64,000 bases of DNA. Source: Octopus vulgaris (Eukaryota). Location: positions 8,308,001 to 8,372,000 of the forward strand of contig OX597829.1 of the NCBI GenBank assembly GCA_951406725.2. The letters are read 5' to 3'. The notes beneath the pieces are model-generated. The model was not told the DNA's origin and did no database searches. It was given only the letters and a program-made list of their open reading frames with translations. Numbering within the stretch: the first letter of the stretch is position 1; every line of letters begins with the position of its first letter. A program made the translations under genes and the position numbers. Positions 12,663 to 51,895 of this stretch are shown here, in pieces.

Positions 12663-12827
12663 GGAGTGGTTGTGTGGTAAGTAGCTTGCTAACCAACCAC
12701 ATGGTTGCGGGTTCAGTCCCACTGCGTGGCATCTTGGGCAAGTGTCTTCTGCTATAGCCTCGGGCCGACCAATGCCTTGTGAGTGGATTTGGTAGACGGA
12801 AACTGAAAGAAGTCTGTCGTATATATG

Positions 12828-12887
<60 letters not shown>

Positions 12888-13086
12888 TGTGTCGGTGTTT
12901 GTTCCCCTAGCATTGCTTGACAACCGATGCTGGTGTGTTTACGCCCCCGTAACTTAGCGGTTCGGCAAAGGAGACCGATAGAATAAGTACTGGGCTTACA
13001 AAGAATAAGTCCCGGGGTCGATTTGCTCGACTAAAGGCGGTGCTCCAGATTAGCCGCAGTCAAATGACTGAAAAAAGTAAAAGAGT
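12663..13086 (+). mobile_element. tRNA-derived SINE family A, full length
   Basis: A-box-like TGGTTGTGTGG, B-box-like GGTTCAGTCCC, CTTGGGCAAGTGTCTT core, internal (TA)n(TG)n; multicopy in the window. Confidence 0.9.
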
Positions 13087-13103
13087 ATATATGTGTGTAC
13101 ATA

Positions 13104-13526
13104 GACTCAGGAGTGGCTGTGTGGTAAGTAGCTTGCTTACTAGTCACATGGTTCCGGGTCCAGTCCCACTGCGTGGCACCTGGGGCAAGTGTCTTCTACT
13201 ATAGCTTCGGGCCGACCAAATCTTTGTGAGTGGATTTGGTAAGCGGAAACTGAAAGAAGCCCGTCGTATATAAATAAATAAATATATATATATATGTGTG
13301 TATATGTTTGCGTGTGTGTGTGTGTGTGTTTGTGTGTCTATTTTTGTCCCCACTACATCGCTTGACACCCAATGGTGATGTGTTTATGTCTCCGTAACTT
13401 AGCGGTTCGGTAAAAGAGACCGATAGAATAAGTACTAGGCTTACAAAGAATATTTCCTGGGGTTGATTTGTTCGAAGGCAGTGCTCCAGCATGGGCGCAG
13501 TCAAAGGATTGAAACGAATAAAAGAA
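13104..13526 (+). mobile_element. SINE family A, second tandem copy
   Basis: Colinear with 12663-13086. Confidence 0.9.
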
Positions 13527-13636
13527 TATACATACATACAAATATACAAATATACATACACACATACATACGTACGTACATACATACATACATGCATACA
13601 TACATACATACATACATACATACATACATACATACA

Positions 13637-13689: not shown

Positions 13690-14092
13690 AAATTATAATT
13701 ATAAGCATAATTGTAATTAGGGTTCAGAATATTGCTATATACCGAAATTTAGAAATAGCAGTTGTCGCTTGGTTCAATACATATTTGATTATTAGCACTC
13801 TCAAATTTACAATTGAAATACTACACTGAAGACGGAAATAAATGACTAAAAATAAAAAATTTTTACATCTCTTTAATCCAGAAACGCGTATGTAGTTGAT
13901 CAAAGCCGGGTGAATTCGTTATCTTTTTCTCTTTCACTACGTGAATTAAGAATATTGCTATCTGGGAGATATCTTATGGCAGAGTAATAGTATTTAACTG
14001 CTTTTTCTAAATTTCGGTATGTGGTGAAGCAATTTTTGCTGAACCCTAATTATAATTATGCATACAATTATAAAATTTTACCCTTTATTATT

Positions 14093-14098
<6 letters not shown>
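13690..14098 (+). mobile_element. Inverted-repeat-bounded element with internal hammerhead (family Q, copy 1)
   Basis: Imperfect inverted arms ~13690-13763 and ~13996-14075 (TAATTAGGGTTCAG / CTGAACCCTAATTA), short tail, microsatellite flanks. Confidence 0.75.
13821..13895 (+). ncRNA. Minimal type I hammerhead ribozyme motif
   Basis: Stem I CTACA/TGTAG, core CTGAAGA, stem II GGA..TCC with a long AT loop and a C.A closing mismatch, GAAA, palindromic ACGCGT, cleavage triplet GTA. Confidence 0.7.
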
Positions 14099-14132
<34 letters not shown>

Positions 14133-14134
<2 letters not shown>

Positions 14135-14690
14135 TAGTTGAATGAATTATCCTAGTATGGATAATTCGGTTAACCGATACCCGGGTAGCAAATTCACGTC
14201 AGAAAAACACGGTTGAAGCTACATGCCAAGGGCAGAGATCACGTGCTTTCGTGTGGAAATTTGTGTTTTTTTTAATAGAAATAAATGAAAGAATGGAGTT
14301 GAACGACGATTTAACATAATTCCTTTATTCGCGACATATGTTTCGAAGACTGCATATTCCTAATTTTGAAGGAAAAAGGGGTGCATTATGCCGCCTTCTC
14401 ATCAGGAAAGACTTATGTCAGCATCATGATGAACAAAAACTTTTAGATGACTGCCCACACGGGGTCCATAGCGATAAATGGATTTATCGCTATGGACTCC
14501 GTGTGGGCAGTCATCTAAAAGTTTTTGTTCATCATGATGATGACATAAGTTCCTTGTCTTTCCTGATGAGAAGGCGGCATAATGCACCCCTTATTCCTTC
14601 AAAATTAGGAATATGCAGTCTTCGAAACATATGTCGAGAATAAAGGAATTTTGTTAAATCGTCGTTCAACTCCATTCTTTCATTTATTTG
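14133..14690 (-). mobile_element. Fold-back hairpin element (~200 bp arms, ~145 bp tail on the left) within (TA)n
   Basis: Palindrome ~14278-14689 centred near 14480 (GCGATAAATGGATTTATCGC), with few mismatches and one small indel; a hammerhead motif in each arm. Confidence 0.9.
14559..14640 (+). ncRNA. Minimal hammerhead ribozyme motif (mirror copy on minus strand at ~14331-14410)
   Basis: TTTC-CTGATGA-GAAGGC..(branched loop)..GTCTTC-GAAA-CATATG-TC-GAGA, followed by AATAAA. Core intact, GUC triplet. Confidence 0.8.
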
Positions 14691-14716
14691 TATATATATA
14701 TATATATATATATATT

Positions 14717-14763
<47 letters not shown>

Positions 14764-14766
<3 letters not shown>

Positions 14767-15318
14767 TTGTTATATTTCGGAATGGTCATATTGCCAGTTT
14801 AGCCAATAAAAACACACGCACTATATATTTGGTGTTATTTTGCTTCAGTGATATTTATTTTTAATCTTATTTCGGCCAAAATTAGAACAAAAGCAACAAC
14901 AACAAAAACAAAATACAAATTACAAGAATGTATATAACCAGAAGATACAAATATTACAGGCATGCCCCCCACACACACACTAAATAAACATAGACGCACA
15001 TAGAGATATAAGCATGCGCAAATGAAGACATACAATAGAAATACAAAATGGCTGACGGTTAGTAAGGAGAGATACAAGTAAGTGAGAAGAAAACAAAGGA
15101 CCACTGATGCGGTCACAGGAGTGTGACGAAAGAACTTTGGCCGAAATAAGATTAAGATTAATGTAAAAAATAAATATCACTGAAGCAAAATAACACCAAA
15201 TATATAGTGCGTGTGTTTTTATTGGCTAAACTGGCAATATAACCATTCCGAAATATAACAATATCTGTTTCAACACACGACTTCACATTAAAAAATCTTG
15301 CACAACAAATACTTAAAC

Positions 15319-27214: not shown

Positions 27215-28665
27215 ATGTTTGACATTTATTTTGTATTTGTACAAGTTGACTCCAAGTCTCACCCAGAGACCTCAAGAAACAAGCTAGCAGTTCATGTTGG
27301 TGTTATGCCTAGGGTGTCATATATTTGGCCTTGTACATATTATTGTTCTAGAGAATGTTTAAGAAAACATAAGAAAAGTATGAGTTTGTTGTCATACCTG
27401 GGATTTCATAGACAGTACTTTACGTAGGATATGGGCAATTCCCATGAGCACTATCTTTTGAATTTCTACCATTTTTGGGGCTTCCTGGTATCTGAGCCAG
27501 GTAGCAATCAGCCCCTTTTGCTATCAATTCTAGGGCACCTATGACAACAGGTATTGTTTTAATCTTCAGGTTCCACATTTTGCCAATTTCTATTTCAAGG
27601 TCTTTATACTTGCTCAGTTTTTGGTATGTCTTGATAGATACATCTATGTCGATTGGGACAGTCATATGAATGAGGAAGCATGATTTCAATATAATGTCTG
27701 GCCTATTCGCGTCTATCTTTCTCTCAGTTTGAATGGTGAAGTTCCAGAGGAGTGAGATGTGGTCATTTTCAAGCACTGGAAGTAGTTTGTGTTCCCACCA
27801 GTTGTTATCATTGGGCAGGTCTAAGTTTTTGCAAATTACCCAGTGAATATATTGTGCTGCTCTATCATGCCTGTTGAAATACTCTGTAGGCACAAGAAGA
27901 CTGCACATGGAGACAACATGATCAATGGTTTCATTTTGTTTTTGACATACACAATATGTTGGGCTACTGCCGTTCTTTAATATGTTGGCCTGGTAGTTTC
28001 ATGTAGGTAGGCATAGATCTTGGGCTGCTATGATAAACCCTTCTATTTCTGATTTTAAACCTGAATACACGTATTATTGACGAGTGTGGGCTTTGTCAAC
28101 ATCGGCATTATTAAATCTCTTTAGGTATTTGCTATTGAGAGATTTTTCTTGCCATTTATCAGTCAGAATATCTAAGGCAGCAGTTTTAGCACGGGTTTTC
28201 ATGTGATTAGCTTTTTCTGCGCTTGTTTCTTGTATGCCTAATTCCGGAATTTGTTGTATTTGGTATTCATTATATATTCCTTTGCCTGTTTTGTTACTGA
28301 GTATGATGCTTTCTTGTTTTCATGTTTTGAGACAAGTTTTAACATCCAGTCCTTAGAGCTTTTCAGGTAGGTGTCTAGGCCATTCGTAGCAATCTTCATT
28401 GTTAATTCCAGTTGTAAAAAGTCCACGGCCTCCCGCTTAGGGTGGTGCATTCTATGCATTGTCAACAGTTTCCTTATTTTTCTGTCAAGATTACATATTT
28501 TAGTAATAATTGACCAGTTAATGATATTGAGACTGCAAGACACGATCGGTATGGCTAAAGCATTGATCGCTTCGATATTGTTTCTTGTAGTCAGCTCTGT
28601 CTTGAGTATTGCTCTTACTCTGCGATAACATACTCTTCTGATCCTTTCCTTCATCATCGAATATT
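27215..28665 (-). mobile_element. 5'-truncated, decayed R4/Dong-clade LINE (post-RT region, CCHC knuckle, RLE) ending in TAA repeats
   Basis: ORFs 28238-28657 (RKIRKLLTMHRMHHPK) and 27420-27908 (RHD..IHW..C, RPDII, KLSKYKDL, IPVVIGAL); CQKQNETIDHVVSMC knuckle; frameshifts present. Confidence 0.85.
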
Positions 28666-28765
28666 TGATTATTCTTCTTCTTCTTCTTCTTCTTCTTCTT
28701 CTTCTTCTTCTTCTTCTTCTTCTTCTTCTTCTTCTTCTTCTTCTTCTTCTTCTTCTTCTTCTTCT

Positions 28766-28797
<32 letters not shown>

Positions 28798-28819
28798 CTC
28801 TTCTTACTATTATTATTAT

Positions 28820-29015
28820 TGGCGAGCCGGCAGAATCGTTAGCACGCCAAGGGAAAATGCTTAGCGTCTATACGTTCTGAGTTCAAATTCCTTCGAGGTT
28901 CTGTTTGCCTTTCATTCCTTTCAGGGTGAATAGAATGAGTACCAGTCGAATATTGGCGTCTATGCAATCGACTTACCTTCTACCCGAAATTTCTGGCCTC
29001 GTGCCAATTTGAAAT
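28820..29015 (+). mobile_element. SINE family B, diverged
   Basis: Similar to 26987-27200. Confidence 0.75.
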
Positions 29016-37109: not shown

Positions 37110-37650
37110 AAGAGAAGGAAAAATAAGAAGGAATATAGGTTGTGTGAAAGTAGTAAGGTGTTAAATGACTTAAAATTGGCACCTAGTGGATTCTAGCAGT
37201 GATTGGGACAGTTTTTTAATGAATTCTGGGGAATCTCTCGAGTGTATCATTTTTAATATTTGCGTGTGTATTTGTGTTATTCGAAGGCCGAGGTGGATAT
37301 GTCGTTTGTCGTAGACGCGTTCAGAAGGGGCTGTATTTTGCAATAAAGAGAGTTTCTTTACTAATTCGTTGGCTCTAGGATGTATTGGTAGAGGGGAAAT
37401 GTCGATGTGTTGGCTGAATGCTATTTTTCTGTTTTGAGGAATTTTTATCTGGGATCTGTGCAGGGCCATTCGTTTACGTAAACTATTTTTTGTTTGGCCT
37501 ATGTATTGCTCTTGACACCCAGAGCAGGTTAGTGCGTATATCAGGTTCTCCGAAGTACATGTGAATTTGCTTTCCACTGTGAAACGTTGTCCCTGTTTGA
37601 AGGAGAACTCTGATCCCTCAATTAGATGATCGCATATCCCACAATTGGGA
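37110..37650 (-). mobile_element. Penelope-like (Neptune-type) element 3' fragment with GIY-YIG endonuclease
   Basis: CGIC..FTCTSENLIYALTCSGCQEQYIGQTKNSLRKRMALHRSQI, then frameshifted FP.YQ..QRISKETLFIAKYSP.LN; 5' end abuts a (TA)n-rich tract. Confidence 0.88.
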
Positions 37651-37714
37651 TATATACATATATACATAAATACATGTATACATACATACATTTAAATATA
37701 CCTATATTTATATA

Positions 37715-48760: not shown

Positions 48761-49462
48761 GATGGCTGCCCCCTTGTTATCGAGTATGGCCATTGCACGA
48801 AGCTTAACTATTATTGGTACTGTGATCGAATGTGATTTTTTAGCCGAGCCAAAGATCTACAATGTCTTGTACAGAATTGGCAGCTAAAACCTTTACCGGT
48901 AATAGCCAGCTGTAGTTGTAACTGGGCTTCATGTATCTTTGCATGTCGTCTAAGTCCTCCTGCCGAATTACACTCTCTTCCACATGCCCGACAGATATGA
49001 TTAGTATGGTGTGTTACACCACCACCAGTTGCCAGGTTGTCACTCATCTGTCTCGTTTTATGACTACGAAGATGACTCATGAGTCCAGCTTTACTGAGGC
49101 AGAGTCTTGCACAGACACTGCATGTCAGCATCATAGGAAGACCCTTCCCATCTGGAAGTGTAACAGCGATGTCCTTCCTGACATTCCTCCTTACTTTCTC
49201 ATGCGCAACTCGAGATTTCTCAAAAGTAGCTGTTCCCTCGTGCACAACTTTCTCCACCTGCTACGATCAATAGCTATGCCCTCCCATGTGTCAGGAGAGA
49301 TGCAAGCATCTCTTAAGGAAGCCTTCAGCAAGTCCTTATACCTCTTTTGGTTTATGTGGAGGTCGTTCTCCTTTAGCTAACTCTCCATAATAGAGTTGTT
49401 TTGGCATCCTTGAATCCTTCATCCTGACCTGATGACCACTCCATCTGAGACTTTGCTTTAAC
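48761..49462 (-). mobile_element. RTE LINE 3' segment with C-terminal C2H2 zinc fingers
   Basis: LRWSGHQVRMKDSRMPKQLYYGEL..KRYKDLLKASL..WEGIAIDRSRWR, then three Cx2Cx12Hx3H/Q motifs. Confidence 0.9.
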
Positions 49463-51615
49463 ACTATGTGCTATACTGATGACGAAAAAATTTCTTTCTA
49501 CCATGCTTTGGAGGGCATTATAAGAAATATCCCTCGGGCAGACAAAGTCATCGTACTGGGTGACTTTAATGCTAGAGTGGGTAGGGATTTTAACACACGG
49601 ACTGTAATTGGAAAGCATGGGGTGGGGAAGTGTAATAGTAATGGCATGCTTTTGCTGCAGATGTGTGAGGAGCTGAGTCTGTGTGTTACCAATACCATGT
49701 TTCAACGAAAGAATAAGTTTAAGACCACATGGATGCACACAGCATCTAAAGAATGGCATATTCTGGATTACATCCTTGTTAGGGTGCGTGACAGACAGGA
49801 TGTGCAGTGTGTTCGTGTTCTTCGTGGAGCTGAGTGTTGGACTGACCACCGCCTAGTACGTGCAAAAGTGAAATTAGTCACAAAACATAAAATCCGAACT
49901 GCAGGGATTACCCTGCCTAAAAGACTGAATGTTGATCGTCTTAGGTGTAATAGTGTGAAGAGAACTTTACGAGAGGAAATGAATGCTGCAGATATTGGGG
50001 AGGATTGGCCGATCCTTAAAAAGTTAGTTTATGATATAGGCAAGAAAGTTCTGGGATTGATACAAAGAAAGCATCAAGTTTGGTTTAAAGAAAATGAACA
50101 TATAGATGATTTACTGGCTGATAAAAGACGTACTTTGTCATGCTATTTGTCAGCAAAGCCACAGGAAAGGGAAGTGTTGCATTGGGAACTCAAGGATGTA
50201 AAATCACGTGTGAGGCAAAGACTCTCTCAGTTGAGGGATACGTGGTGGTGTAAGAGGGCTGATGAGATACAGGTGGCGACGGATTCTAGTAACACAAAGA
50301 TGTTGTATGGTCTTTTGCGAGAAGTTTATGGACTGACGTCTTCTCTGATGACACTACTTCGATGCAGGGATGGTAAAGAACTTCTTCGTGATTCACAAGG
50401 AATTCTGCGAAGGTGGCACGAACACTTTGATGAACTTTTGAATCAGCAGTCTGTAGTTAGTGAGGATGTTTTCAATCTCATCCCTGGATTACCTGTGAAG
50501 GCAGCACTTGCAGAACCTCCAAAGCTGGAAGAAGTTGCAGTGGCTGTCTCAAGGTTAAATAATGCGAAGTCTCCGTGTATGGATGACATACATGCGGAGT
50601 TGTTACAGCATGATGGTGAGAAACTTCTGTAGAAACTTCACTCTTTGTTTGGTAAGGTATGGATTAGCGAATCTGTACCTGAGGAATGGAGAGATACAGT
50701 AATGGTGGTCTTGTATAAGGGAAAGGGCAACAGGAATGATTATGGTAATTATAGGAGAGTATCATTGCTTTCTGTCGTAGGAAAGATTTTATGCAGGATA
50801 CTTCTGGATCGTCTGCTGAAACACGTTGCAGATTGTGTTCTTCCACAAAAGTCAATCTGGCTTTCGTGTGGGACGTGGCACTGTTGATATGATCTTTTCA
50901 GCTAGACAGCTTCAGGAGAAGTGTGTGGAACAAGATCTGGATTTGTATCAAGTTTTTGTCGATCTGACAAAAGCCTTTGATACCGTTAATAGAAAATCAT
51001 TTTGGGAAGTCCTCCAGAAACTTGGGTGTCCTGAAAATTCCTTGCTTTGGTTGGGTCTTTTCATGAAGACATGAAGGGTAGGGTTAATGTTAGAGGGAAA
51101 ATGTCGGTGCCCATTTCAATACAAAATGGAGTGAAACAAGGGAATATTCTGGCACCGACCCTATTTGCCATATATTTTGCGATGGGGTTCTGTATTGCAT
51201 TCAGAAACTGCAGCATGGTGTTTACATCCATTATCGAACCTCTGTCAGCATATTTAATATCAGGCGCTTTGCTGCAAAAACAAAGGTATTTACCTCTATC
51301 ATAAGAGACCTTTGGTATGTAGATAATTGTGAGCTAGTAGCACACACAGAGATTGATATGCAACACATTTTGAATGCATTCTCTGATGCTTGCACTGCCT
51401 TAGGATTGGCAGTCAATCTCAAGAAAACTGTTGTCATGTACCAACCTGCCCCTGGTAAGCAGTATAGTGTACCAAAGATCAATGTGTATGGTAAACGGCT
51501 TGATGCAGTTGATCAGTTTGTCTACCTGGGAAGCACTATTAATAGATATAGCAATTTGGATGATGAAATTCCATTTAGAATTAGGATAGCAAGTGTTGCT
51601 TTTGGAAGGCTAGAA
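49463..51615 (+). pseudogene. RTE LINE ORF (APE endonuclease plus reverse transcriptase), disrupted, inverted relative to its 3' segment
   Basis: VLGDFNARVG, HILDYILV, TDHRLV (APE); YRRVSLLS, QSGFR, FVDLTKAFDTV, GVKQGNILAP, YVDN in place of YADD, FVYLGS (RT); stops and frameshifts. Confidence 0.93.
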
Positions 51616-51626
51616 ATGCTCCATCA

Positions 51627-51700
<74 letters not shown>

Positions 51701-51711
51701 CACATACCTAT

Positions 51712-51895
51712 GTTCTTTTACTTGTTTCAGTCATTTTGACTGTGACCATGCTGGAGCACCGCCTTTTGGTCGAAGATATCGACCCCTGGACTTATTCTTT
51801 GTAAGCTTGGTACTTATTCTATCTGCTAAATTACGGGGACGTAAACGCACCAACATCGGTTGTCAAGATCGGTGGACAAACACATAAACATACAC

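Follow-up and report, generated by a model that had tools for sequence, protein, structure and literature searches.

The palindrome described here, which lies in 64,000 nucleotides of Octopus vulgaris DNA (the window; contig OX597829.1, positions 8,308,001 to 8,372,000), is a single insertion of two 5′-truncated end pieces (pLTRs) of a Hydra-clade Penelope-like element (PLE), placed head to head in a (TA)n microsatellite. The original prediction of a head-to-head retro-insertion is upheld, but it missed that such palindromes are routinely produced by a Penelope-like family of the Hydra clade; the focal locus is an ordinary remnant of a dead transposon. Inverted pLTRs, one-sided tails and hammerhead pairs on opposite strands are already in print, in the sections consulted of PMC8557442 and PMC4209133. 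What is noteworthy is found at the level of the family, namely a 148-nt tail, a strict rule for the pairing of inverted arms, and (TA)n targeting without a linker zinc finger. How PLEs generate inverted repeats, tails and a microsatellite bias is an open question in the consulted parts of PMC8557442 and PMC3846280, and the octopus family bears on the origin of all three.

Anatomy of the palindrome and its hammerhead motifs

The inverted repeat occupies positions 14275–14478 and 14483–14693 of the window, and its arms, which differ in alignment by six substitutions and one 7-bp gap, are separated by a 4-nt loop, TGGA, at the head-to-head junction (14479–14482). The folding check that had been suggested was run, and the hairpin has a predicted minimum free energy of −341/−335 kcal/mol, in agreement with the palindrome as first described. 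The left arm (14278–14478, − strand) is a pLTR fragment that begins at a hot spot of 5′ breaks about 207 nt before the pLTR end, and the right arm (14483–14690, + strand) shares this starting point and extends as far as the pLTR end; relative to a unit derived from L031, a near-full copy of the family, identity is 94% for the left arm with its tail and 97.6% for the right arm. Only the left arm runs on, as had been claimed, into a tail of 145 bp (14133–14277, − strand) that is element sequence from directly downstream of the pLTR end and upstream of the ORF, and that matches the 148-nt tail of L031. (TA)n adjoins the palindrome at both outer ends (14098–14132 and 14691–14764), and both arms begin with ATTTATC, one T beyond the family-typical ATTATC. 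The insertion had been called young; it is fairly recent, but with arms about 2.9% apart, against a family mean near 2.4%, it is not especially young for its kind.

A palindrome could also be created by an assembly error or a chimeric read that doubled one arm. The exact focal centre was not seen spanned among the contigs listed from five independent public runs, whose contigs are short. We nevertheless consider an artefact extremely improbable, because the arms differ from each other at the positions counted above, with a tail on only one of them, and because contigs from the independent runs carry many head-to-head joints of the family, several of them at 14484.

Each arm carries an outward-pointing core of CTGATGA, a 6-bp stem II and GAAACATATGTC, located at 14563 (+) and 14405 (−) and followed by AATAAA, exactly as originally laid out; a script scan found no further such cores in the window. 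AATAAA is situated within stem I/loop 1; a role for it as poly(A) signal was considered, and A-tails were absent from genomic ends. In both focal motifs, stem II consists of 6 bp plus a 42-nt structured extension, and this long insert is probably why Rfam, at gathering thresholds, gave zero matches in the 64-kb window. The right type I hammerhead (14548–14650, +), delineated by motif scan and constrained folding, has CUGAUGA at 14563–14569, GAAA at 14624–14627, a bipartite stem I (distal 8 bp, proximal 4 bp) and a 2-bp stem III inside the palindrome ACAUAUGU, with a predicted cut after C14635. A full type I fold is possible at −22.3 kcal/mol when constrained, 3.3 above the free minimum. The left motif (14318–14413, −) retains its core and stem II, but it lacks the 7 nt that supply distal stem I with its 5′ strand (the 7-bp loss near 14412) and has an A>C change at 14331 in proximal stem I; as a result it forms no stem I, and its constrained fold reaches −14.5 kcal/mol. 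The claim of two intact ribozymes therefore holds for the core words of both arms and fails for the folded structure of the left, such that the right hammerhead is predicted to be intact and the left to be inactive.

Across the family, the core and proximal stem I are kept in 96 of 112 arms. A check for covariation turned up two pairing variants, one in which A-U replaces G-U through a change on one side (16 arms) and one that breaks a terminal pair (40 arms), and two-sided changes were found in none. As the two focal cores are on opposite strands, a transcript would contain a single sense core and no tandem dimer in cis. Since upstream promoter boxes are missing from the focal copy, the hairpin is expected from read-through RNA only, and such RNA would form a duplex of about 205 bp that would bury the one hammerhead predicted to be intact. 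The suggested competition between cleavage and duplex formation may thus apply to read-through RNA, and it would concern the + strand alone rather than transcripts from either strand. With its promoter boxes lost and no ORF, the focal copy is likely inert.

Other repeats were observed in the window. Two small MITE-like elements with long terminal inverted repeats (13690–14090 and 14760–15268), each within (TA)n, flank the palindrome, and the arms of the second (14760–14869 and 15159–15268) are 95% complementary. Tandem SINE-like repeats of about 445 bp that are 85–87% alike lie at 12663–13533, and an inverted repeat of 251 bp and 90% identity (42462–42712/42866–43112) surrounds trinucleotide runs. 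An ORF fragment at 37173–37691 (−), which combines a CxxCxxC linker and LIY..YIG with a pattern of the CCHH type, is presumably a PLE endonuclease of the Naiad/Neptune type. There are also LINE-like ORF remnants at 49436–51801 (+) and 27423–28867 (−), presumably one of an AP endonuclease/RT type and one with a CCHC knuckle that is split by a long trinucleotide run.

The octopus family and its placement in the Hydra clade

In the 2.8-Gb genome, 453 sites match a 29-mer of the right arm exactly and none matches its reversed control, and a similarity search returned at least 54 matches from the 40 scored among 2106 candidates. The near-full copy at L031 consists, in order, of (TA)n, an inverted tail plus pLTR, a tail, a frameshifted ORF, a 3′ UTR, a pLTR and (TA)n. 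Its single ORF, broken by frameshifts, encodes a reverse transcriptase (RT) with, at the C-terminus, a GIY-YIG endonuclease (EN), and the motifs RIRWLAFF, SDKTGN, FDISSFYPS, YRDD and SIY..YIG occur in that order, followed by CxxC and CxH. The RWK motif is thus present as RIRWLAFF, with L for K, and DKG is changed to DKT. The EN is without CCHH, and the sequences SIYQCKISSGTGxFFYIG, FCGVCNSE and RCMHWQKH are found in L042, L038 and L035. The best homolog is P0001 (E=8e-32); Pfam searches with four frameshifted ORF pieces gave no RT match and only a sub-threshold GIY-YIG match (E=0.074).

The Hydra clade is defined by RWK, DKT, the absence of CCHH, CxxC/CxH, CxCX5C, a hammerhead and (TA)n, according to the consulted sections of PMC8557442. 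On the basis of its motifs, and of a by-eye match to the alignment published there, we assign the octopus family to this clade. The CxCX5C linker is absent from the 70 aa before SIY in all nine in-frame copies, and in L031 (L031:3540–3960) the linker is a stretch of about 140 aa that is Asn-rich and Cys-free throughout. P0001 does carry CxCX5C, and we read its absence from the octopus copies as a putative secondary loss. The family is distinct from Hydra-1_Obim, as it has another hammerhead and another length. In L031 the sequence that follows the tail (L031:1635–1690) ends in ...CATATACAG just ahead of the ATG, and it is possible that CATATACAG is the 3′ splice site of a 5′-UTR intron, as in Penelope. 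Our literature search, which covered neither Repbase, subscription journals nor most of the supplement of PMC8557442, found no description of the octopus family or of its pairing rule, and nothing in print on the 148-nt tail or on elements that target (TA)n while lacking the linker finger.

Fixed ends, inverted pairs and the origin of the second arm

To define the family, we retrieved every locus behind the first 100 entries in a position-ordered list of 29-mer matches, which gave 85 loci; L062 and L086 yielded no alignment and were left out, and 84 insertions were counted. Since an exact 29-mer was demanded in one arm, pairs and long arms ending at the pLTR are favoured in this sample, in which at least 51 of 84 insertions are head-to-head inverted pairs; for the sample this is a floor, as some copies scored as unpaired have short inverted remnants or exceed the fetched stretch. 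Both hammerhead cores are kept in 18 of the 51 pairs, and both arms begin at the hot spot, as in the focal copy, in six, so the focal layout is routine in this genome. A palindrome of a divergent subfamily (~82%) was noted at L067:1309–1810, with a perfect centre and arms that are identical in the hammerhead region; it, too, joins one tailed and one tail-less arm with the usual ends.

Two outer ends are fixed in the family: E, the pLTR end, at which the focal right arm stops, and T, the tail end 148 nt beyond E, at which the focal tail stops. Unpaired copies (33) end at E 17 times and at T 15 times. Among the pairs, 49 of 51 combine E with T, the other two combine E with an arm that ends within the tail, and E/E or T/T pairs do not occur. 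Two independent insertions into one (TA)n tract, homogenised later by gene conversion, would be conceivable in that (TA)n is a strong target and conversion might yield shared alleles. However, (TA)n is absent between the arms, and neither the E+T pairing nor the head-to-head polarity would be expected, which makes this explanation highly improbable.

At subfamily-diagnostic sites, paired arms agree at 195 of 199 positions, compared with 51% between loci, and come from a common source lineage; the comparison covers 46 overlapping pairs, 31 from the position-ordered sample and 15 from a similarity-ranked set. Shared alleles of this kind would also result if the end of a cDNA (or of an antisense RNA) folded back, primed its own copying and generated a mirror arm, a mechanism proposed in print for Adineta PLEs on the evidence of palindromes at inverted junctions, as reported in the part of PMC3846280 consulted. 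This was one of the options originally offered, and it draws further support from a recurring −207/−198 junction with a 2-nt AT overlap, which resembles a mini hairpin, and from the focal arms, which share their start base and extra T. Yet fold-back alone is insufficient, since in 28 of the 51 pairs, again in a sample that favours long E arms, the tail-less arm extends beyond the tailed arm in the 5′ direction (the T arm reaches further in nine, and 14 are level), and in none of these 28 does one arm contain the other. The recurring junction is also found in both polarities, the tailed arm being short in L065, L090, L019 and L121 and long in L078, L129 and L030. Finally, fold-back does not account for the constant stop of the tail-less arm at the pLTR end, which is where unpaired copies stop as well. 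We therefore regard it as unlikely. An asymmetric central deletion after fold-back could imitate some of the unequal pairs.

At their other ends, arms break preferentially in a narrow region. Of 135 5′ ends, 32 fall within the 17-nt window −211 to −195, a density of 1.9 per nt as opposed to 0.45 downstream and 0.05 upstream; the hot spot held on a recheck of raw sequence, in which a few arms had their break at −215 to −225. Long copies read TGACGTCA...TATAAC...CTCA|TT across this site, and we take TGACGTCA, TATAAC and CTCATT to resemble a CRE, a TATA box and an initiator (Inr). Together with the break positions, this likeness to promoter consensus sequences leads us to predict that the hot spot at about −207 is the RNA 5′ start. 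An AGTCA at +27, presumably DPE-like and one base off consensus, was not relied on, and an additional G of the kind that a cap would leave was not consistently seen in 45 breaks at the hot spot. The ribozyme cut site was considered as an alternative 5′ boundary of insertions and rejected, with two of the 135 ends in −62 to −48 in a sample that needs one arm to cover the region.

It is also conceivable that the palindrome moves as a unit of its own, in the manner of a MITE or a retrozyme, and is copied whole by means of its two ribozymes. The pairs in which both arms begin at the hot spot (6/51) or both cores are kept (18/51), and the one junction sequence common to several pairs, count in favour of such a unit. 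Against it, junctions differ across nearly all pairs, the focal junction occurs once in 45 breaks, the left ribozyme is broken, and breaks do not cluster at the cut site. Moreover, the recurring junction is found on different subfamily backgrounds, with L065, L090 and L078 carrying different alleles, and for this reason we find whole-unit copying very unlikely.

In our judgement, the insertion probably arose when one template was reverse-transcribed twice, in separate target-primed events, which corresponds to the inverted second priming raised in the original prediction and fits the E+T composition of 49 of 51 pairs. We infer that the GIY-YIG endonuclease would cut (TA)n on both strands, that priming would take place at T from one target end and at E from the second, each through a short AT match, and that the template for both would be the same RNA or RNAs from the same donor. 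Both cDNAs might then be extended up to the 5′ end of the RNA, the predicted CRE/TATA/Inr start near −207, after which their ends would be joined and filled in. The pairing of E with T to the exclusion of like ends, combined with allele concordance between arms, speaks for two primings on a single template rather than for fold-back. Six tailed arms stop within 10 nt of E (p=0.023, uncorrected). As a counterpoint, the two focal arms have their first base in common, as well as an extra T, a geometry with which fold-back is compatible at this locus. Allele sharing could also arise if only one subfamily was active in any one period or if conversion between the arms followed, and large overlaps between arms would need strand displacement or two RNAs. 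Given the strict rule of one tail per palindrome and the wide spacing of the two starts (148 nt), the two-priming model lends itself readily to an in vitro test.

Target preference and comparison with known systems

A TA-rich flank is found at 113 of 132 outer (3′) ends of the family, compared with 5.9% of window positions. The octopus family thus shows the (TA)n insertion bias with the CxCX5C linker finger missing, and this may point to primer-template AT pairing or to the EN core as the targeting device. We extend the two-priming model to a proposal that we consider evenly poised between right and wrong. In it, the family would be a natural record of twin priming, in which all inverted insertions employ both fixed RT starts of a single RNA, each target end taking one of them, with run-off at the pLTR transcription start; and strict (TA)n targeting in the absence of the linker zinc finger would mean that targets are chosen by AT pairing of primer and template or by the EN core. 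The missing finger offers a natural test of the proposal that the finger directs (TA)n targeting.

Twin priming is familiar from L1, for which two target ends prime on one RNA to create an inverted junction. The arms of twin-primed L1 insertions mostly derive from adjacent, non-overlapping RNA, and the internal primer site is variable. In contrast, both sites are fixed in the octopus family, and arms often overlap by 100–200 nt or more. We also considered, and rejected, the non-LTR retrozymes, which are tandem head-to-tail units with type I hammerheads in the consulted part of 10.64898/2026.07.22.740005, as the octopus units are head-to-head and are the ends of an ORF-bearing element.

The nearest relatives are other Hydra-clade PLEs. 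In the consulted sections of PMC8557442, these share with the octopus family an RW-type motif, DKT, a divergent RT4, a C-terminal GIY-YIG without CCHH, CxxC/CxH, a canonical hammerhead near the 3′ end and (TA)n targets; the octopus family differs in its length (about 3.4–3.5 kb versus <3 kb) and in having the Asn-rich, Cys-free stretch of about 140 aa in place of CxCX5C. The hammerhead of the octopus family differs from that of Hydra-1_Obim (PMC8557442) and has a 42-nt stem II extension. Head-to-head end copies with a single-sided tail follow the textbook layout of EN+ PLEs, an inverted 5′-truncated pLTR plus a one-sided tail (PMC8557442, Fig. 2), and a 5′-truncated inverted copy is listed for Penelope-13_HM, also of the Hydra clade (PMC8557442). 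The octopus tail is longer, at 148 nt compared with 30–40 for PLE tails (PMC8557442), and the focal locus departs from the layout in having no ORF between its arms and a target site duplication that is unreadable in (TA)n. Adineta Pen2a resembles the octopus family in its TATA/Inr-like pLTR motifs and in an Asn-rich insert between RT and EN (PMC3846280, in part).

PLE hammerheads are of a dimer type with a short palindromic helix III and cleave weakly in vitro, and dual hammerheads on opposite strands, about 100–700 bp apart, were reported for Schistosoma in 2014 (both from the consulted part of PMC4209133). The focal locus is similar in its type I core, short palindromic helix III and opposite-strand pair; the Schistosoma motifs are minimal, whereas the focal motif combines a 2-bp helix III with a bipartite stem I (PMC4209133). 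A biochemical parallel to the proposed priming is found in the anole Poseidon element PAc, of which the consulted sections of PMC11167929 report that in vitro both strands are cut and extended at AT-rich targets, that RT is initiated internally, at two sites that bound the tail, and that ribozyme cleavage is not required for insertion. PAc belongs to another clade and has a short tail, and its two starts are not tied there to the arms of inverted insertions (PMC11167929); as in our proposal for the octopus family, however, it has two starts at the bounds of the tail, together with cutting and extension on both strands (PMC11167929).
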